Positions 6,824 through 61,051 of a DNA stretch of 64,000 bases are shown here, one piece after another (the first letter of the stretch is position 1; each line of letters starts with the position of its first letter). The position numbers and the translations under genes are program-made. This DNA comes from Actinomycetes bacterium. Lineage in GTDB: Bacteria > Actinomycetota > Acidimicrobiia > Spongiisociales > UBA5794. A model generated the notes under the pieces. It made no database searches and was not told the origin of the DNA. It saw only the letters and a program-made list of their open reading frames with translations. The stretch is taken from contig JAMBLJ010000036.1 in the NCBI GenBank assembly GCA_023336815.1, positions 13,991 through 77,990 on the forward strand. The letters are read 5' to 3'.

Positions 6824-8533
<1,710 letters not shown>

Positions 8534-9076: not shown

Positions 9077-9972
9077 CAGTTGCGGCCATCGACATCGGAT
9101 CGAACTCCCTGCGCCTGCTCGTCCTCGATCGGACGGGGGTAGAGCTTGAGCGCGATGTCACGGTCACGGGGCTTGGCTCCGGGATCGAAGCTACGGGTAC
9201 CTTCGATCCGCACGCAGTGGAACGTACACTCGATGTGATTAGCCGATACGCCGATGTGATCGCAAGTCACCCTGTGGAATTGCTGAAGGCGGTCGCGACG
9301 TCTGCGTCACGCGATGCCGCCAACGGTGAAGAGCTCATGATCGCGATAGATAACGCGCTGGGTGTCCGACCCGTCATCATTGATGGAGCCACCGAAGCGA
9401 GCCTTGCCTTCTTCGGTGCGACCATTGAGTCGTACCCTTCGGACCGGAAGCTCGTGATCGATATCGGAGGTGGCTCCACTGAGGTCGTCGTCGGCTATGA
9501 ATCTGTTACCTACGCAACGAGTATTGACATAGGTTCCGTCCGGTTGACCGACGCCTTCGTAGCCGACCGTCCGGTGGCACCGGACGTCCTCGACGCGATG
9601 CGAGCTCACACAGATAGAGCATTCGGTCAGGTTGCGTTGGTCGGCCCCGTAGATCAAGCGATCGGTGTGGCGGGTACGCTGACCAATCTCTCAGCGATGG
9701 CGATGCATCTGGAGATGTACGATCGCTCGGTCGTTGACGGGTCGTATATTTCCCTCGCCGTGATCTCTGATCTCATCGAGGAACTTTCCACGCTCACGAT
9801 CGCTGAGACCGAGATGATCCCTTCTCTCGATCCGAAGAGGGCCAGAGTCATCCTGGCTGGAGCGGTCATTGCTCACAGCATCATGACACGTTGCGATATC
9901 AGTGGCCTCCGTATCTCCGAGAGGGACCTGCTCGACGGACTCGCTAGGGAACTGCTCCAGGCGATCGACTGA
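9073..9972 (+). CDS. Ppx/GppA family exopolyphosphatase/guanosine pentaphosphate phosphohydrolase
   Basis: ATGA overlap with previous stop; N-terminal AAIDIGSNSLRLLV actin-like ATPase fold motif of Ppx/GppA; 299 aa (short actinobacterial form). Confidence 0.88.
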   Translation: MTVAAIDIGSNSLRLLVLDRTGVELERDVTVTGLGSGIEATGTFDPHAVERTLDVISRYADVIASHPVELLKAVATSASRDAANGEELMIAIDNALGVRPVIIDGATEASLAFFGATIESYPSDRKLVIDIGGGSTEVVVGYESVTYATSIDIGSVRLTDAFVADRPVAPDVLDAMRAHTDRAFGQVALVGPVDQAIGVAGTLTNLSAMAMHLEMYDRSVVDGSYISLAVISDLIEELSTLTIAETEMIPSLDPKRARVILAGAVIAHSIMTRCDISGLRISERDLLDGLARELLQAID

Positions 9973-12125: not shown

Positions 12126-12212
12126 GCCCGGGTGGCGAAATCGGCAGACGCGGCGGACTTAAAATCCGCTATCCGAAAGGATGTGTGGGTTCAAGTCCCG
12201 CCCCGGGCACCA
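12126..12212 (+). tRNA. tRNA-Leu (anticodon UAA)
   Basis: 87 nt incl. CCA; acceptor stem GCCCGGG/CCCGGGC, D-arm GCG..CGC, anticodon stem GCGGA/TCCGC with loop CTTAAAA (anticodon TAA), long class-II variable arm, T-arm GGTTCAAGTCC, discriminator A + CCA. Confidence 0.9.
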
Positions 12213-16831: not shown

Positions 16832-17512
16832 ATGGCTTCAGTTGTGATCATCGAAGACGACCAGCGTATCCGTGAACTCATGGCGCATGTTCTCGCTGGA
16901 AAGGGATACGAGGTCGAGGGCGCTGCAACAGCGCTCGATGGTCTCCAACGGATCGTTGCTACCTCCCCGGACGTGGTTGTGTTGGATATGGGTCTGCCCG
17001 ATCTCGATGGAGCTGAGTTGCTGAAGATGATCAGAGCAGTCACAGATGTGCCCGTCATCGTTGCTACAGCGAGGAGCGAGGACACAGACGTGATCCGCAC
17101 GCTTGACGCAGGTGCGGATGACTACCTCGTGAAGCCGTTCTCGGTCGAGCAACTCGAGGCGCGTTTGCGAGCAGTTCTCAGACGATCAGCGAGCAATGGT
17201 GCGGCACCCGCCATCATCGTTGGTGATCTACGGATCGATTCCGGTTCTCGCATCGCGACGCTCGAGAACACAGCGTTGCAGCTGAGCCCCAAGGAGTTCG
17301 ATCTCCTCGTGTATCTCGCCGAACGTGTGGGTATCGTCGTCTCAAAGCGCCAGCTCATGGCCGAGGTCTGGCGTCAGCCGTACGGCGGTTCAGAGAAGAC
17401 CGTCGATGTACACATCTCCTGGTTGCGTAAGAAACTGGGAGAGACCGCGGCGGCACCCCGGTATCTCGAGACCGTGTATGGGGTGGGCATCAAACTTATC
17501 GACCCTACATGA
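16832..17512 (+). CDS. OmpR-family two-component response regulator
   Basis: Receiver domain (IIEDDQRIRELM..., conserved D in VVVLDMGLPDLDG, K in DYLVKPF) plus winged-helix trans_reg_C (LSPKEFDLLVYLAERVGIVVSKRQL...YGVGIKL). Confidence 0.92.
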   Translation: MASVVIIEDDQRIRELMAHVLAGKGYEVEGAATALDGLQRIVATSPDVVVLDMGLPDLDGAELLKMIRAVTDVPVIVATARSEDTDVIRTLDAGADDYLVKPFSVEQLEARLRAVLRRSASNGAAPAIIVGDLRIDSGSRIATLENTALQLSPKEFDLLVYLAERVGIVVSKRQLMAEVWRQPYGGSEKTVDVHISWLRKKLGETAAAPRYLETVYGVGIKLIDPT

Positions 17513-18822
17513 GAAAGCGGCTCGCTCTCTTGAGTCTTGCCGTGGCATCGCTCGTCGTGGTTGCGTTTCTTGTACCCGTTGCTGTTCTCATCAGGAACCA
17601 GGCACAGACAAGGGCGCTGTCCGGTGCAGAACGTGATGCACAGTCCGTGGCTGCGGTGCTGGCGGTATCGGGTGGTGCGAACACGGGCGGTGATATCAGC
17701 ACACGTCTCGTGGAGACCGTTCTCGACGCGTTCGGCAACCCCATCGGTCTCAGCATCATCTTCTCCGAGTCGCGGGTTGTCGGAGCTCCGGTGAGCTGGT
17801 CATCCAACATAGAACAAGCACAGAGGGGGGCGGCCTTCGCTGCGAAATCCGACGGCGGCGCCGAGGTTCTGGTTCCCGTACTCGTACCCGACTCACCGGG
17901 ACCCAGTGGAACGATCGTCGTCCGTGCGTTCGTGACCGATGCCGAGCTGACGGCCGGTGTACCCCTTGCATGGGCGATGCTCGGCGGTCTTGGTGTTTTT
18001 CTCATCGCCGTTGCGATGTTCGCGGCCGACCGACTCGGGCGATCGGTTGTGAGGCCTGTCACTGAACTGTCGGACGCAGCGCATCGCTGGGGTGAAGGGG
18101 ATCTGGATGTTCGCGTGACCCCTGGTGGACCTGATGAGATAGCTGAAGTGGGCCAGGCGTTCAACACGCTCGCTGGACGCCTCGATTCCCTTCTCGTGGC
18201 GGAGCGGGAATCGGTCGCGGATTTGTCCCATCGGCTGAGGACACCCCTCACAGCGCTGCGGCTCCAGGCAGAGATGCTGTCCGATCCGATGGAGAGTGTT
18301 CAGCTCAAGGCCGACATCGATGATCTCGAACGAGCTGTTGATGACCTCATCCAGGCGGCACGATCGCGTTCGGTGAGAGCCTCACCCGTTGAAATGGTCG
18401 ACCTGGGAGAGGTGGTCACCCACAGAGCTGGCTTCTGGCGCATCCTTGCCGAGGAGCAGAACCGGCCAACATCGGTCACGATCGAGGAAGGTGATCATCC
18501 CGTTTCGCTTGCTCGCTCAGATCTCGGAGCTCTCGTTGACGTTCTCATCGAGAACGTTTTTGCCCATACGCCTGTCGGCGTTGGGTACAGGCTCGACGTT
18601 CGGAATCGAGGTATCGGCGGCCAGGCTTTCACCGTGTCCGACGATGGTCCAGGCTTTAGCGACATCAACGTGATGACGAGAGGGAAGAGCGGAGCGGGTG
18701 GTACCGGTCTCGGTCTCGACATCGTGGTGCGGACGGCGGAACGCACAGGTGGCACGATCCGTGTCGGCACATCCGCAACGGGTGGCGCGGAGATCGAGAT
18801 CGCCTTCGGAGCAGCGGGTTGA
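17509..18822 (+). CDS. sensor histidine kinase (TM-HAMP-HisKA-HATPase_c)
   Basis: ATGA overlap with regulator stop; two TM helices flanking a periplasmic loop, HAMP, H-box LSHRLRTPLTAL, G-boxes DDGPGF and GTGLGLDIV. Confidence 0.9.
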   Translation: MRKRLALLSLAVASLVVVAFLVPVAVLIRNQAQTRALSGAERDAQSVAAVLAVSGGANTGGDISTRLVETVLDAFGNPIGLSIIFSESRVVGAPVSWSSNIEQAQRGAAFAAKSDGGAEVLVPVLVPDSPGPSGTIVVRAFVTDAELTAGVPLAWAMLGGLGVFLIAVAMFAADRLGRSVVRPVTELSDAAHRWGEGDLDVRVTPGGPDEIAEVGQAFNTLAGRLDSLLVAERESVADLSHRLRTPLTALRLQAEMLSDPMESVQLKADIDDLERAVDDLIQAARSRSVRASPVEMVDLGEVVTHRAGFWRILAEEQNRPTSVTIEEGDHPVSLARSDLGALVDVLIENVFAHTPVGVGYRLDVRNRGIGGQAFTVSDDGPGFSDINVMTRGKSGAGGTGLGLDIVVRTAERTGGTIRVGTSATGGAEIEIAFGAAG

Positions 18823-18834
18823 GCGGTCTGTGAC

Positions 18835-19179
18835 TCAGGCCTGACTCACCAGTTCTGCGGGGTCCAGGAACCGGGCGAGGTCCTCCAGGGCCTCGGCTGA
18901 TACGGAGAAGTACGCCCACTTGCCGCGCTGTTCTCTGTTGAGGAGACCTGCGTCGGTGAGCACCTTGAGGTGATGGCTCACGGTCGGCTGGCTCACGTGG
19001 AGAGGTTCGGTGAGATCACACGCACATTGCTGTTCCTGTGAAGCAACGAGGCTGAACAGTCGCAAACGTGTCGGATCGGCAAGCGCCTTGAGTCTTGTGG
19101 CCATCTCGAGGGCATCCGCTTCGCTGAGCGGTTCACAACATACGGGGGAGCAGCAGGCGTCCATGCGATGAGTATACAT
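18835..19179 (-). CDS. ArsR/SmtB-family metalloregulator (CadC/ArsR-like, alpha3N-type Cys site)
   Basis: HTH_5 core LADPTRLRLFSLVA...CACDL...SQPTVSHHLKVLTDAGLL; CAC in alpha3 (cf. ELCVCDL) plus N-terminal Cys cluster CCSPVCC as in CadC-type thiol metal sites. Confidence 0.8.
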   Translation of the reverse strand: MYTHRMDACCSPVCCEPLSEADALEMATRLKALADPTRLRLFSLVASQEQQCACDLTEPLHVSQPTVSHHLKVLTDAGLLNREQRGKWAYFSVSAEALEDLARFLDPAELVSQA

Positions 19180-19182
19180 TTC

Positions 19183-19233
19183 ACATAGACAACTGTCTAT
19201 GTTCGGTTATAGTCGTATCGACAGATGTCTATA
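19183..19233. promoter_or_regulatory. two operator-like inverted repeats in the divergent arsR-like/VOC intergenic region
   Basis: Perfect 9-2-9 palindrome ACATAGACA-AC-TGTCTATGT (19183-19202) and related imperfect copy TATCGACA-GA-TGTCTATA (19216-19233), centres ~32 bp apart; followed by AAGGAG RBS for the + gene. Confidence 0.55.
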
Positions 19234-19248
19234 TAAAGGAGCGATGTC

Positions 19249-19674
19249 ATGTCACAAGCCGAAGTCCCAACCACGGGAAGGGTGCAGCTAGCACTCAACG
19301 TCACGGATCTCGAATCATCCGTTGATTTCTACACGAAGCTGCTTGGTGTTCCCCCAGTGAAAGAGAAGCCGGGATACGCGAACTTTGCCGTTGCAGTCCC
19401 ACCTCTGAAACTCGTCCTGTTCGAGTCGAGCGATGGGGGCACGATCAACCATCTTGGCGTTGAGGTATCTGACACCGCTGCAGTGGGTCGAGCGATCGAA
19501 CGACTAGAAGACGCGAAACTGACGACGGAAACCGAAGCCGAAGTTTCGTGCTGCTATGCCAAACAGGACAAGGTGTGGGCAACGGGTCCTGATGGCGAGA
19601 AGTGGGAGTATTACACGGTTCTCGAGGCGACCCCGGACCAACAACAGGCATCAGAGGTGGCGTGCTGCGCTTGA
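19249..19674 (+). CDS. VOC (glyoxalase/bleomycin-resistance/dioxygenase) family protein, CadI/ArsI-like
   Basis: 141 aa; VOC fold pattern (RVQLALNVTDLESSVDFYTKLLG, INHLGVEVSD); vicinal cysteines CCY mid-protein and C-terminal VACCA; divergent from ArsR-type regulator as for cadI/arsI. Confidence 0.6.
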   Translation: MSQAEVPTTGRVQLALNVTDLESSVDFYTKLLGVPPVKEKPGYANFAVAVPPLKLVLFESSDGGTINHLGVEVSDTAAVGRAIERLEDAKLTTETEAEVSCCYAKQDKVWATGPDGEKWEYYTVLEATPDQQQASEVACCA

Positions 19675-19710
19675 TCTCCTGCCCACTCGTCGAAACGTTT
19701 CCTGTGCCCT

Positions 19711-19740
19711 CGATTCCACGGGGGCACAGGGAGGTGCCAG
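19711..19740 (+). terminator. GC-rich hairpin downstream of VOC gene
   Basis: CCTGTGCCC (19711-19719) / GGGCACAGG (19732-19740) 9-bp perfect stem, 12-nt loop; no U-tract (common in high-GC actinobacteria). Confidence 0.35.
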
Positions 19741-19767
19741 AATCGGGGTTGTAGCGAAAGAGAGCAC

Positions 19768-22524
19768 ATGGCAACGACCACCGTTTCGACAACCATCACC
19801 GACCCGCCAGAGCGGTACCCGGCCGAATGGGAACAGGATGCCGTGCTCAAGGACGGCGGAACGATCAGGATCCGACCGATCGTTCCCGAGGATTCCGACG
19901 CCCTGCAGGAATTCGTCCAGAACATGTCGACACAGAGCAGCTACTTCCGGTTCTTTCGTGTCAAACGTGAACTCGACGCGGACGAGCTCAAGACATTCAC
20001 CCAGGTCGACTACAAGGCCGACATGGCATTCATCGGGATCGTCGACGGAGAACTCGTAGGCGTTGGTAGGTACAACGCCCTCGAAGATGACCCATCGACC
20101 GCGGAGATAGCGTTCACCGTTCGTGACTCGTTTCAAGGGATGGGTATCGGTACGTTGCTCGTCTTTCGGATCTCCGCATATGCGCGTGCGCTCGGGATCG
20201 AACGCTTCAGAGCATTTCTCCTTGCCGATAACCATGCGATGATGCGGGTATTTCGCAACGCTGGTTTCGCACTCAACCGTGAAATCGACGAAGGTGTCTA
20301 CACGGTTGAGATCCCAACAGAAGAGTCCGACTCTGTTCTTGCTGCCGAAGGTAAGGCTGAGCAGATCTCGACGGCAGCGAGCCTCATGCCTCTCTTCTAC
20401 CCCCACTCCATCGCCGTTATCGGTGCGAGTAGGAACAGGGCGTCCATCGGCGGTCGACTATTCAACAACATCCTCAACGCGGACTTCATGGGTCCGCTCT
20501 ATCCGGTGAATCCAAGGACATCGGTTGTTCGGTCGATACCGACCTTCGCCTCCGTCAAGGACATACCGGGACCGATTGACCTTGCTTTCATCGTTGTGCC
20601 GTCCCAGCATGTCGCTGATGTCGTGAGAGAATGTGCGGAGAAGGGTGTCCGGTCGCTCGTTGTGATCTCCGCCGGATTCTCCGAGGTCGGGGGTTCCGGT
20701 GCGGAGGCTGAGGCCGAGATTCTCGACATCGTGAGGACGGCAGGGATGCGGATGGTCGGACCGAACTGTATGGGTCTGCTGAACACCGATCCGGTTGTCA
20801 ACCTCGATGGTCAGTTCGGTCCGATCATGCCCCCACGAGGGAACGTGGCGATGCTCTCCCAGAGTGGTGCGTTAGGTCTTGCCATACTCGACTACGCAAC
20901 CGAGCTTGGTATCGGTATCTCGACGTTCGTGTCGGTGGGAAACAAGGCGGACGTTTCAGGCAACGACTTGCTGCTGTACTGGGAAGAGGACCCGAACACT
21001 GATGTCGTTCTCCTCTACCTCGAGTCCTTTGGTAACCCCCGCCGATTCTCGAGAATCGCCAGGCGCATTGGTATGAAGAAGCCGATCGTCGTCGTGAAGT
21101 CGGGCCGAACAGCCGCAGGAGCTCGGGCGGCGTCGAGTCACACGGGGTCACTCGCAAGCCTCGACACGGCGGTGGATGCGCTCTTTGATCAGGCTGGTGT
21201 CATTCGCGTCGACACGCTAGAGGAACTCTTCAATGTCGCATCGCTTTTGTCGAGCCAACCACTGCCACGAGGTCGCAACGTTGGGGTGATCACCAATGCC
21301 GGGGGTCCCGCGATCCTGGCGGTCGACGCTCTCGAGTCTCAGGGGCTGCACGTCCCCCATCTTTCGGACGAACTCCAGAAACAGTTGCGAGAGTTCCTGT
21401 CAGCCGATGCAGCGGTGTTCAATCCAATCGACATGATCGCCGCGGCTGGTCCTGAGGAGTACAAGAAGACGATCCAGGCATTGCTCGCAAGTGACGAGAT
21501 TGATGCGCTCATCACCGTCTTCATCCCCGCTTCAGACGTGGGTGTCCCCGAGACGGCAACTGCGATTCGTGAGGCCGCGGAGGAATCGAGTGGCGAGAAA
21601 GTCTTCCTCAGCGTCTACATGAACTCATCGGGAGTTCCAACGGAGCTCTCGTCGGCGACTGCCCAGTTTCCGGTATTCCCGTTCCCGGAGCGTGCGGCAA
21701 TGGCCCTGCGCAAGGCGGTCGAATACGCCGAGTGGCGTGAGAAGCCTGCCGGCACGTTCGTGCGCCCCGAAGGTATCGACAAGACCGAGGCTCGCAGGAT
21801 CCTCGACGCTGCGTGTGAGGGCCTCCCCCCGGATGGCGAGTGGCTTGCCCCCGAAGCTGTGGATGGGATCCTCACTGCATACGGTCTCCCTGTCCCGCGA
21901 ACGGGGGTTGTTCATTCGCTCGAAGAGGCACGTGCGTTCGCGGAGAGCATCAGTGGACCGGTCGTGTTGAAGGTGATCTCGCCATCGGCTGTCCATAAGT
22001 CCGATGTTGGTGGTGTTGCTCTGGACGTGAACGGCCCTGAGGAAGTGAAGGCTGCGTACGAACAGGTCACATCTGCGGTCCCCGACCCCGAAGGTGTGCT
22101 GGTTCAAGAGTTCGTGGTCGGTGGCCATGAGGTGCTCATCGGCATGGTGGAGGATCCGAACTTCGGGCCACTTGTCGTGTTCGGTCTCGGGGGTGTGTTC
22201 GTCGAATTGATCGGCGATGTTGCCTTCCGCATCCATCCGTTGACCGATCATGATGCGGCCGAGATGATCGCAGATGTGAAGTCGGCACGGTTGCTCGAGG
22301 GATACCGGGGTGGCGACAAGGGTGATATCGATGCTGTTATTGACGCCCTGCTAAGGGTGTCCGCAATGATCGAGGATCTTCCGGAGGTCTTCGAGATGGA
22401 TCTCAATCCGGTGAAAGTCGGCACACCGGGCTCAGGTGTGCGTATCGTGGACGCACGGATAAAGGTTCGCCCGATAGAACACAGCTGGATCCCGTCTCGT
22501 ACGGACCTGCCATCGATGTTGTAA
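19768..22524 (+). CDS. bifunctional GNAT acetyltransferase / NDP-forming acyl-CoA synthetase-like protein (Pat-type protein lysine acetyltransferase, actinobacterial domain order)
   Basis: 918 aa; N-terminal GNAT (ELVGVGRYN...FQGMGIGTLL), then CoA-binding domain (HSIAVIGASRNRASIGGRLFNN, VVISAGFSE), CoA-ligase and ATP-grasp domains (VVLKVISPSAVHKSDVGGVAL). Confidence 0.82.
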   Translation: MATTTVSTTITDPPERYPAEWEQDAVLKDGGTIRIRPIVPEDSDALQEFVQNMSTQSSYFRFFRVKRELDADELKTFTQVDYKADMAFIGIVDGELVGVGRYNALEDDPSTAEIAFTVRDSFQGMGIGTLLVFRISAYARALGIERFRAFLLADNHAMMRVFRNAGFALNREIDEGVYTVEIPTEESDSVLAAEGKAEQISTAASLMPLFYPHSIAVIGASRNRASIGGRLFNNILNADFMGPLYPVNPRTSVVRSIPTFASVKDIPGPIDLAFIVVPSQHVADVVRECAEKGVRSLVVISAGFSEVGGSGAEAEAEILDIVRTAGMRMVGPNCMGLLNTDPVVNLDGQFGPIMPPRGNVAMLSQSGALGLAILDYATELGIGISTFVSVGNKADVSGNDLLLYWEEDPNTDVVLLYLESFGNPRRFSRIARRIGMKKPIVVVKSGRTAAGARAASSHTGSLASLDTAVDALFDQAGVIRVDTLEELFNVASLLSSQPLPRGRNVGVITNAGGPAILAVDALESQGLHVPHLSDELQKQLREFLSADAAVFNPIDMIAAAGPEEYKKTIQALLASDEIDALITVFIPASDVGVPETATAIREAAEESSGEKVFLSVYMNSSGVPTELSSATAQFPVFPFPERAAMALRKAVEYAEWREKPAGTFVRPEGIDKTEARRILDAACEGLPPDGEWLAPEAVDGILTAYGLPVPRTGVVHSLEEARAFAESISGPVVLKVISPSAVHKSDVGGVALDVNGPEEVKAAYEQVTSAVPDPEGVLVQEFVVGGHEVLIGMVEDPNFGPLVVFGLGGVFVELIGDVAFRIHPLTDHDAAEMIADVKSARLLEGYRGGDKGDIDAVIDALLRVSAMIEDLPEVFEMDLNPVKVGTPGSGVRIVDARIKVRPIEHSWIPSRTDLPSML

Positions 22525-22534
22525 GTGAGGTTGC

Positions 22535-23146
22535 ATGCATGTACGTGATCTGATGACCACCGACGTGGTCGCGGTCGCTCCGTCGACGACAGTGCGAGAC
22601 GCCGCCCGGATGATGTTCCGATACCGGGTGTCAGGCCTGCCCGTCGTCGATCCAGATGACCACCTGCTCGGGATCATCACCGAAGGCGACTTCCTCGCCA
22701 TGGAAGTCGAACGGGCAGATACCGGCCAGGCTGCGGAGTTCGTTGAAGAGGTCATGTCGCATTCTGTGCTGACAGTACCTCCAGACCTCGAGATCATCGA
22801 AGCGGCACGTTTCATGCATACGAATGACGTCAAGCGTGTGATTGTGGTCGAGGACGACAAGATGGTCGGCATTATCTCTCGTTTCGATGTCGTTGCTGGC
22901 TTCACCCGTCCAGACGACCTCATTGAAGACGAGATCCGGGAGGATCTGATCCGACGTGTGCTGTTCGTCGATCCCGAGACTGTCGACGTCGTGGTGAGCA
23001 ACGGGGTGGTTACATTGTTCGGCAAGATCGGCACGCGCACCGAGGTGCGGCTGATGGAGGAGCTCACCCGTCGGTTGGACGGAGTCGTCGATGTGGAGAA
23101 CAAATTGCAGTGGCGGATCGACGACACGGCTGTTTCTGAGCGGTGA
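22535..23146 (+). CDS. CBS-pair + BON domain protein
   Basis: Two CBS motifs (MTTDVVAVAPSTTVRDAARMMFRYRVSGLPVVD; VLTVPPDLEIIEAARFMHTNDVKRVIVVED), C-terminal BON-like VVVSNGVVTLFGKIGTRTE...VDVENKL. Confidence 0.75.
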   Translation: MHVRDLMTTDVVAVAPSTTVRDAARMMFRYRVSGLPVVDPDDHLLGIITEGDFLAMEVERADTGQAAEFVEEVMSHSVLTVPPDLEIIEAARFMHTNDVKRVIVVEDDKMVGIISRFDVVAGFTRPDDLIEDEIREDLIRRVLFVDPETVDVVVSNGVVTLFGKIGTRTEVRLMEELTRRLDGVVDVENKLQWRIDDTAVSER

Positions 23147-59798: not shown

Positions 59799-61051
59799 TG
59801 TGGTGCGGATGTGCTCAGCAGCGGCATGATCTCGTCCTCTGCGAGGACATGGTCAGATTGCTTTGCTGCGGCGAGGATCTTGTCGACCGTTGCATCGTCG
59901 AAGCTATGTCCGCGTTTCATGAGCCAGGCGACAGCGTTGGCCTTTCCACTCATCGGTCCGACGGTGATCTCCTGCTCACGTCCGAGCTCGTCTGCGGGTA
60001 CGCCGCTGTAGATGCGGTTCGCGAGCCATGTGTCTCCTGTGCGGAGCGCCTTGAGGACGGCAGCGGCGTGGACACCGGTGCTCGTCTCGAACGCGTCCTT
60101 ACCAACACTGGGACAGTTGTTCGGGACAACGGTCTCCGTTGCGGTAGAGATAGCTCGACAGTACTCGGGCAGAGCGTGAAGATCGGTGTCGAGCCATCCG
60201 AGCAGCTTGAGATTCACGAGCAGCGTCTCCATTGGTGTGTTGCCGACGCGTTCGCCGATACCGAGACCGCACCCGTGAACTCTGTGGGCACCAGCCGAAA
60301 GTGCAGCAAGCGAATTGATCACGGACAGGTTGCGATCGCGGTGCCCGTGCCAGTCGATCTTCACCTCTTCGCCGGAATCCGCGACGATCTCGACGGCGAG
60401 AGCAACGAGAGCTCTGGTTCCCCACGGGGTGGCATGCCCGACCGTATCTGAGAGACAGATCCGCCGCGCCCCTGCTTCGATCGCTGTTTGGTACACCTTG
60501 CGTAGAACCTCTGGTCGTGCACGAGTTGTGTCTTCGGTCACGTACATGACCTCGAGCCCCGATTCACGGGCAAGCGTTACGGCATCGTGTGTTGTACGAA
60601 CAAGGAAGTCGACGTCCCACCCCTCAACGAACTGTCTGATGGGGCTTGAGCCGAGGAAGAGGGCGGCCTCTATCGCAACACCCGAGCGTTGCTGCGCCTC
60701 AGCGATAGGAAGGATGTCGGCTGCGTGGGTTCGTCCTGCGCAGTTCGGCTTGACGTTGAGTCCCGCCTTGTCGATCTCGGTTGCAAGCGCTACCACGTGG
60801 TCGAGAACCACCGGATCCGCACCGGGGTACCCGATGTCTGCGGCATGGATGCTGAGGGCTTCGATCCGGTGCAGGATGTCGAGCTTCTCATCAAGGGTTG
60901 GCTGGCGCACGGATGGACTCTGAAGTCCATCCCTGAGGGTTTCGTCGTCGAGTTCAACTTCGGTTGGCGGCGAGATATCGCCTTCTCCTATGAGGTTCCA
61001 GTCGTAGAGCAGCTGTTGTTCCCGTGTCTCGGAGGTTTCTTTCGTGGTCAC
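59795..61051 (-). CDS. DRE-TIM metallolyase, 2-isopropylmalate/homocitrate/citramalate synthase-like (short form, no regulatory domain)
   Basis: DETLRDGLQS, HGHRDRNLSVINSLAALSAGA, GIGERVGNTPME motifs of LeuA/NifV/CimA family; 418 aa; first gene of minus-strand operon. Confidence 0.75.
   Translation of the reverse strand: MTTKETSETREQQLLYDWNLIGEGDISPPTEVELDDETLRDGLQSPSVRQPTLDEKLDILHRIEALSIHAADIGYPGADPVVLDHVVALATEIDKAGLNVKPNCAGRTHAADILPIAEAQQRSGVAIEAALFLGSSPIRQFVEGWDVDFLVRTTHDAVTLARESGLEVMYVTEDTTRARPEVLRKVYQTAIEAGARRICLSDTVGHATPWGTRALVALAVEIVADSGEEVKIDWHGHRDRNLSVINSLAALSAGAHRVHGCGLGIGERVGNTPMETLLVNLKLLGWLDTDLHALPEYCRAISTATETVVPNNCPSVGKDAFETSTGVHAAAVLKALRTGDTWLANRIYSGVPADELGREQEITVGPMSGKANAVAWLMKRGHSFDDATVDKILAAAKQSDHVLAEDEIMPLLSTSAPQ

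Follow-up and report, generated by a model that had tools for sequence, protein, structure and literature searches.

The window analysed here, a stretch of 64,000 nucleotides (64 kb) from an Actinomycetes bacterium (contig JAMBLJ010000036.1), contains two divergent open reading frames (ORFs), placed as in the initial annotation of this DNA, which encode an ArsR-type regulator (18835-19179, minus strand) and a protein of the VOC family (19249-19674, plus strand). The spacer between the two genes carries a pair of operator-like palindromes and has a G+C content of 39%, against 59.7% for the window as a whole. Its length is given here as 84 bp and not as the 69 bp reported initially, because the regulator likely starts at the second ATG, at 19164. 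The family models, the retention of the ArsI ligands and the conserved operator-like sites over the promoters lend computational support to the earlier suggestion of a compact switch responsive to metals or organoarsenicals, and the locus is probably a two-gene, arsenical-responsive detoxification switch comprising an ArsR repressor, an ArsI-type VOC enzyme and two operators. The features of the locus are listed below.

18835-19164, minus strand: ArsR/SmtB-family repressor, 109 amino acids (NF033788, PF01022, AlphaFold fold)
19165-19179, minus strand: five-codon N-terminal extension MYTHR, probably untranslated (homologue starts; its ATG lies inside the predicted promoter)
19171-19199, minus strand: predicted regulator promoter, -35 TAGACA at 19199-19194, 17-nt spacer, -10 TATACT at 19176-19171 (10/12 matches)
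19183-19202: predicted operator O1, perfect 9-2-9 palindrome ACATAGACAACTGTCTATGT (ACATAGACA-AC-TGTCTATGT), holding both -35 hexamers
19186-19213, plus strand: predicted VOC promoter, -35 TAGACA at 19186-19191, 16-nt spacer, -10 TATAGT at 19208-19213 (10/12 matches)
19215-19234: predicted operator O2, imperfect palindrome GTATCGACAGATGTCTATAT, spanning the predicted VOC start and ending 1 nt before the Shine-Dalgarno sequence
19236-19241, plus strand: Shine-Dalgarno sequence of the VOC gene, AAGGAG, located 7 nt upstream of its ATG (sequence)
19249-19674, plus strand: ArsI/CadI-family VOC metalloenzyme, 141 amino acids, predicted Fe(II)-dependent C-As lyase (NF041414, alignment with TcArsI)
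19698-19733, plus strand: GC-rich hairpin of 15 bp following the VOC stop, a probable terminator lacking a U-tract (folding)

The regulator and the VOC enzyme

The longest ORF of the regulator encodes 114 amino acids (aa). As judged from its homologues, translation almost certainly begins at 19164 and yields a 109-aa protein starting with MDACCSPVCC, since all the homologues and an identical NCBI protein begin at M-D/E-x-C-C and the upstream ATG falls within the regulator promoter, between its predicted -35 and -10 hexamers. The identical protein (P0001; 100% identity and the same 109-aa length) belongs to a metagenome-assembled genome labelled 'Actinomycetia bacterium'. The regulator passes the ArsR-family model NF033788 (94 bits, cut-off 55) and PF01022 (HTH_5; 58.6 bits, cut-off 22), and its recognition helix is SQPTVSHHLKVL. 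The best-scoring specific model, that of the Rv2640c family (NF041413), was rejected as its subfamily, the score being 102.7 bits and the cut-off 155; ten relatives of the regulator also fall under this cut-off, the highest of them (L008) with 145.8 bits.

The six cysteines of the regulator are distributed, in the 109-aa numbering, between an N-terminal arm of the pattern C4-C5-x-P-x-C8-C9 and the C47-A-C49 motif in alpha3, and no cysteine follows residue 49 in the sequence; both the N-terminal CCSPVCC and the alpha3 CAC had been recognised in the initial annotation. The AlphaFold (AF2) model (pLDDT 87.6) has a winged-helix topology a1-a2-a3-a4-b-b-a5, in which residues 1-14 are disordered, the cysteine cluster belongs to a flexible arm that precedes alpha1, and alpha3 opens with the CAC motif. 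The modelled thiolate layout is thus of the 'alpha3N' type. C47 and C49 align exactly with Cys58 and Cys60 of CadC and correspond to the CxC of R773 ArsR, which together with the cysteine arm of the model agrees with the CadC-like thiolate site proposed earlier. Substitutions of C4, C5 or C47 are absent from an alignment of 27 relatives, in which at least 90% of the sequences have C49, and this conservation extends over relatives of 52-90% identity; the second pair, C8-C9, is limited to the close syntenic lineage.

Comparison with characterised sensors places the regulator near several known site types. The closest solved structure is that of CgArsR1 of C. glutamicum (6j0e; E 7e-13), which has a Type 3 site and whose Cys15/Cys16 align with the first CC pair, C4/C5; in CgArsR these residues bind As(III) jointly with a cysteine that lies near alpha3 in the partner subunit (PMC11868830). 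The third ligand of that site, Cys55, lies in a two-residue insertion that is absent from the window regulator, which instead has the canonical alpha3 CxC three to five residues further on, plus the second CC pair. With the Type 1 site of E. coli R773 ArsR (Cys32/Cys34/Cys37) the regulator shares C-x-C-D-L at alpha3, but the position of Cys37 is occupied by Thr (CACDLT), leaving the three-cysteine site incomplete, and the N-terminal cysteines are additional (PMC11868830). The alpha3N site of CadC (S. aureus pI258; 1u2w, 3f72) likewise joins arm cysteines to an alpha3 CxC, the arm being C7-x3-C11 in CadC and CC-x-P-x-CC in the window regulator, and the genomic contexts differ: no gene for a cadA-like efflux ATPase adjoins the locus. 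A CadC-type alpha5 site of His, Asp or Glu residues is not visible in the sequence of the C-terminal helix, and the C-terminal pair Cys101/Cys102 that marks the SpArsR type (PMC11868830, PMC6514093) is absent.

The VOC protein scores 175.3 bits (cut-off 116) over profile positions 1-128 of 147 of NF041414, an equivalog model for the 'ArsI/CadI family heavy metal resistance metalloenzyme' that spans both ArsI and CadI, and over residues 10-124 it shares about 60% identity with the crystallised ArsI of Thermomonospora curvata (TcArsI; 5c4p and related entries; E 4e-41). These results bear out the likeness to ArsI or CadI noted initially. TcArsI binds Fe(II) through Gln8, His65 and Glu117, holds the organoarsenical at Cys98-Cys99 and has the essential second-shell residues Tyr38, Gln103 and Lys105 (PMC6138428, PMC12607644), all of which have counterparts in the window protein. 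In an alignment of 28 family sequences, Q13, H68 and E120, which match the Fe(II) triad, are invariant, as are C101-C102, Y43 and Q106, while K108 is present in at least 90%; the last four positions match Cys98-Cys99, Tyr38, Gln103 and Lys105, respectively. Loss of the ArsI/CadI ligands in alignment had been named at the outset as grounds for abandoning the assignment, and all the ligands are kept. Relative to TcArsI, the window protein is extended by nine residues at the N-terminus and has a short tail at the C-terminus that ends in CCA; the mid-protein CC and the C-terminal VACCA of the initial annotation correspond to C101-C102 and to C139-C140 (...EVACCA), the latter pair being near-invariant in the same alignment. 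On this conservation the VOC protein is an ArsI-type enzyme and a predicted C-As lyase. The public record (P0121) labels it only 'VOC family protein' despite a score well over the ArsI/CadI cut-off.

Predicted operators and promoters in the spacer

The perfect 9-2-9 palindrome O1 is present where the initial annotation had placed it. The second palindrome, described there as a one-mismatch copy, has a single mismatch when the arms are taken as 8 nt and two when they are taken as 9 nt, and over the 16-nt core it shares 81% identity with O1. A single perfect palindrome of this size is within chance in the window, and its significance on its own was rejected: four with 9-nt arms occur, against about 1.8 in simulated sequences (maximum 7), the other three lying at 7752-7770, 9568-9586 and 60911-60932 in a number that is itself within chance. 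The case for operators rests therefore on duplication, position and conservation. The core ATMGAY-N4-RTCKAT has two exact copies in the 64 kb, both in this spacer, against 0.16 expected; no third exact copy was found in the window, where the three 11/12 matches all lie within long ORFs, and no operator was found upstream of the neighbouring acetyltransferase gene. An extended operator consensus reads aYATMGAY-N4-RTCKATRt. Among the matches listed from the genome and metagenome pattern scan (see below), perfect copies of the core reach a density of 2.66 per kb within 200 bp upstream of the regulator gene in 160 loci, compared with 0.008 per kb elsewhere in the loci, an enrichment of about 320-fold. 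Thus, O1 and O2 are predicted to be conserved operator-like sites over the promoters.

A consensus scan found two promoter-like sites in 1.2 kb (0.3 expected), which are divergent and match at 10 of 12 positions each. Both -35 hexamers are inside O1 and the VOC -10 sits between O1 and O2, so that the suggested overlap of the palindromes with the promoter holds; the suggested overlap with the ribosome-binding site does not, as O2 stops one nucleotide short of it. From this geometry, the VOC transcript would begin around 19220, within O2. For the regulator, a leaderless mRNA is probable, because its predicted -10 hexamer stops 6 nt short of the ATG at 19164. The divergent arrangement with its -35 hexamers in O1 recurs in syntenic loci: a promoter equivalent to that of the VOC gene is present in 7/7 tested, in 6/7 a hexamer resembling a -10 element stops 6 nt short of the regulator ATG, and CTCCT, the complement of the Shine-Dalgarno sequence, is conserved in the syntenic loci.

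The two palindromes, described at first as three helical turns apart, are separated by 32 bp from start to start, and this distance is not kept in relatives: it ranges over 24-35 bp in the syntenic loci, and in the wider clade, where there are usually two core sites, these are mostly 34-37 bp apart among the matches listed. Helical phasing was therefore rejected as a design feature.

Beyond the VOC stop, the hairpin region (19672-19770) folds with a minimum free energy of -39.5 kcal/mol (z -2.47); a simple terminator scan, which found no T-run, made no call at 19698-19733. Given this strong hairpin, a single operon of the VOC gene with the downstream 918-aa gene was judged unlikely. No structured RNA was found at the locus by Rfam and ARAGORN, whose sole match in the window is a tRNA-Leu (TAA) at 12126-12212.

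Genomic context of the regulator and its relatives

The loci of close relatives were obtained individually by exact-protein look-up, and the matches listed from the genome and metagenome pattern scan are mostly of at most 64% identity, apart from three metagenome loci (L081-L083) of 69-77%. Across regulators of 64-90% identity a single gene order is kept: a CBS/BON protein, a 918-aa fusion of a GNAT acetyltransferase with an ADP-forming acyl-CoA synthetase, the VOC protein, ArsR on the opposite strand, a histidine kinase and a response regulator. In the VOC-bearing syntenic loci the ArsR-ArsI pair always lies between the same acetyltransferase and two-component genes. The genes for the 918-aa fusion and the CBS/BON protein (19768-23146 in the window) are strictly syntenic in L161-L173, and the fusion protein scores below all the NCBIfam equivalog cut-offs. 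On the other side, the genes for the OmpR-type response regulator and the HAMP-containing histidine kinase (16832-18822) converge on the regulator gene, with stop codons 12 bp apart in the window; in several relatives (L165, L166, L168 and L172) the kinase gene, as called, runs about 50-65 nt into the 3' end of arsR.

Two operators are present in all 11 of the syntenic loci that have the VOC gene. Four syntenic lineages are without it, the regulator being there directly divergent from the acetyltransferase gene, and these have one operator (L161-163, L165 and L083) or none (L081). The site nearer the regulator, O1, is kept in all 11 loci with the VOC gene and, among the four lineages without it, in three, and O2 occurs in the syntenic loci only where the VOC gene is present. 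Thus, O2 travels with the enzyme gene. A sensor cysteine has been lost in two of the four VOC-less lineages (CAY in L161, SC in L083), which suggests relaxed constraint, the numbers being small.

The neighbours of the more distant relatives, the wider clade of regulators 52-64% identical to that of the window, were counted among the matches listed. The divergent or adjacent partners are an arsenite methyltransferase gene (arsM) in about 30 loci (NF008823 passed), a FAD-dependent oxidoreductase with a C-terminal CC in about 18, ACR3 in about 13 upstream and 6 downstream positions (TIGR00832 passed) and ArsI/CadI in about 10-14. On a Dietzia plasmid annotated by NCBI, the same two operators separate an ACR3 gene from an ArsR of this type, and annotated plasmid examples have ACR3-ArsC adjoining such an ArsR and its two sites. 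The FAD-dependent oxidoreductase (about 446 aa), the second commonest divergent partner in the clade (L002, L004, L007, L012, L015, L026, L077 and others), matches the ArsO model weakly (39.8 bits against 425) and may be an uncharacterised arsenic-related enzyme.

Related arrangements have been described. Rhodococcus and other Actinobacteria have stand-alone arsR-arsI clusters, interpreted as organoarsenical-responsive detoxification units apart from the inorganic-arsenic cluster, which consist likewise of two genes, for an ArsR and for an ArsI with the Cys98-Cys99 pair; their ArsRs have the C-terminal Cys101-Cys102 of the MAs(III) (methylarsenite)-selective SpArsR and arsI is downstream of arsR (PMC6514093), whereas the window regulator has the N-terminal CCxPxCC and alpha3 CAC with no C-terminal cysteine and the genes are divergent. 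In the mycobacterial Rv2640c-cadI (Rv2641)-Rv2642 unit, and in its version on the Mycolicibacterium gilvum plasmid pMSPYR101 (L175), the ArsI/CadI gene is similarly flanked by genes for ArsR-family regulators, and NCBI curates paired models for this locus. The ArsR in the Rv2642 position of L175 is 52.7% identical to the window regulator and has the same ACC...CVC pattern; Rv2642 is reported to regulate cadI and itself via a conserved motif (PMC10178195). This regulator is co-directional with and downstream of cadI, in contrast to the divergent window regulator, and the divergent partner in L175 is a protein of the Rv2640c family with N-terminal and C-terminal CC pairs and no alpha3 cysteine. 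The region upstream of the mycobacterial cadI has a different repeat, GACATATATC...GATATATGTC, and the M. gilvum locus forms part of an ars cluster that includes ArsC. In L175, the spacer that separates the gene for the Rv2640c-family regulator from that for ArsI/CadI (2776-2878) contains a different long-range inverted repeat, TTGACATATATCAA ... TTCGATATATGTCTCA, which resembles the window operator weakly.

The proposed switch, its alternatives and its significance

In the mechanism proposed for the arsenical-responsive switch, a ligand-free ArsR homodimer would bind both palindromic operators. Occupation of O1, over the overlapping -35 hexamers, would repress the regulator's own transcript as well as the VOC gene, and O2, over the VOC transcription start, would provide a second block acting on the VOC gene only. 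A thiophilic ligand would be held by the thiolates of the arm (C4, C5 and possibly C8 and C9) together with C47 and C49, probably across the dimer interface, and would lower the affinity for DNA, so that both genes are derepressed; the ligands are most likely As(III) and organoarsenicals in trivalent form, for example methylarsenite. The VOC protein would then act as an Fe(II)/O2-dependent dioxygenase that binds R-As(III) via C101-C102 and cuts the C-As bond to give the less toxic As(III), a product that would need export by a transporter encoded elsewhere. By analogy, As(III) and trivalent organoarsenicals are also the likeliest inducers, because the neighbours of the clade are arsM, ACR3 and arsI and because the substrates of ArsI are known; for ArsRs with three-cysteine As(III) sites (R773 ArsR, AfArsR and CgArsR), a response to MAs(III) as well as to As(III) is reported (PMC11868830). 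The link of Rv2640c to the cupric ion in the Actinobacteria TFDB, which goes back to a copper-resistance paper, was given no weight.

Several observations weigh against this interpretation. The Cd/Pb sensor CadC has the same combination of an N-terminal cysteine arm and an alpha3 CxC, and cadI of M. tuberculosis owes its name to induction by cadmium (PMC10178195). The regulator scores under the cut-off of the nearest curated subfamily, that of Rv2640c. The window has no other ars gene (ACR3, arsM, a second ArsR and a second VOC copy were all absent in tblastn searches of the 64 kb with ACR3, ArsM, regulator and VOC queries), the arsenic context being drawn from relatives only 52-64% identical. 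Finally, the regulator is kept in the four VOC-less syntenic lineages, so that control of a VOC gene may not be its sole role.

The cysteine layout and the naming of cadI fit an alternative in which a CadC-like sensor of Cd(II), Pb(II) or Zn(II) controls a metal-binding or metal-protective CadI and not a C-As lyase. The exact alignment of the CAC motif with Cys58/Cys60 of CadC, the N-terminal cysteines resembling its alpha3N site, the cadmium-induced and metallothionein-like character of the M. tuberculosis CadI (PMC10178195), the two vicinal cysteine pairs of the VOC protein, of which the C-terminal one is near-invariant, and the coverage of ArsI and CadI by a single NCBIfam model are all in keeping with it. 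A thiol sponge would nevertheless have no need of the ArsI Fe(II) triad and second-shell residues, which are invariant or nearly so; no CadA-type P-type ATPase adjoins the locus and no CadC-type alpha5 site is visible in the regulator; relatives of the regulator adjoin arsM, ACR3 and ArsC and not cad genes; and CadI of the mycobacterial type itself lies inside an ars cluster. A cadmium or lead sensor is thus considered unlikely.

Less probable still is a regulator that mainly controls itself and a distal regulon, either ars genes elsewhere or the neighbouring acetyltransferase gene, with the VOC gene as a passenger. The four VOC-less lineages, which keep the regulator divergent from the 918-aa gene, three of them with one operator and L081 with none, fit such an arrangement, but the second operator tracks the VOC gene in 11/11 loci and spans its start site, the window offers no further exact operator (its three 11/12 matches being in long ORFs) and none upstream of the acetyltransferase gene, and the cysteine losses in two of the four lineages suggest relaxed constraint and not a strong role of the regulator independent of the enzyme. 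A thiol-based redox or persulfide sensor acting through disulfides or polysulfide bridges, with a VOC protein that handles an electrophile or oxidant-derived substrate, is the least probable of the alternatives: the six cysteines in 109 aa, the weak NCBIfam matches to BigR and TsoR, far below the cut-offs, and the rise of M. tuberculosis cadI and Rv2642 under H2O2 and NO (PMC10178195) speak for it, while the top subfamily and structural relatives are arsenic-type ArsRs, the clade neighbours are arsenic genes and the VOC protein retains the organoarsenical-binding CC loop of ArsI.

The pairing of arsR with arsI has already been described (PMC6514093), as has the mycobacterial cadI-Rv2642 unit, and the locus reveals no new mechanism. 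The pair in the window differs in the cysteine signature of the sensor, in the divergent orientation of the genes and in being fixed at a conserved chromosomal position in an uncultured lineage, all of which is ordinary variation on a known arrangement. A bolder interpretation, which we regard as improbable, is that the tetracysteine arm (CC-x-P-x-CC) and the alpha3 CAC form a sensory site outside the ArsR types of the cited literature, for instance one that takes two arsenic atoms per monomer or selects methylated or aromatic As(III) over the inorganic form, and that an uncultured Acidimicrobiia-like lineage carries the ArsR-ArsI pair as a fixed part of its core chromosome. If true, organoarsenical demethylation would be a housekeeping trait of the lineage and the locus a ready-made organoarsenical biosensor.

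With one regulator, one enzyme and two operators in an 84-bp spacer, the locus is a minimal example of predicted ArsR-controlled expression of a C-As lyase, and its compact promoter-operator cassette and cysteine-rich sensor are of possible use in arsenical biosensors. It supports the view that the proteins called 'CadI' are ArsI-type enzymes in an arsenic context. The operator core ATMGAY-N4-RTCKAT appears to serve a large actinobacterial clade of ArsRs controlling arsM, ACR3 and arsI, and could improve the prediction of their regulons.

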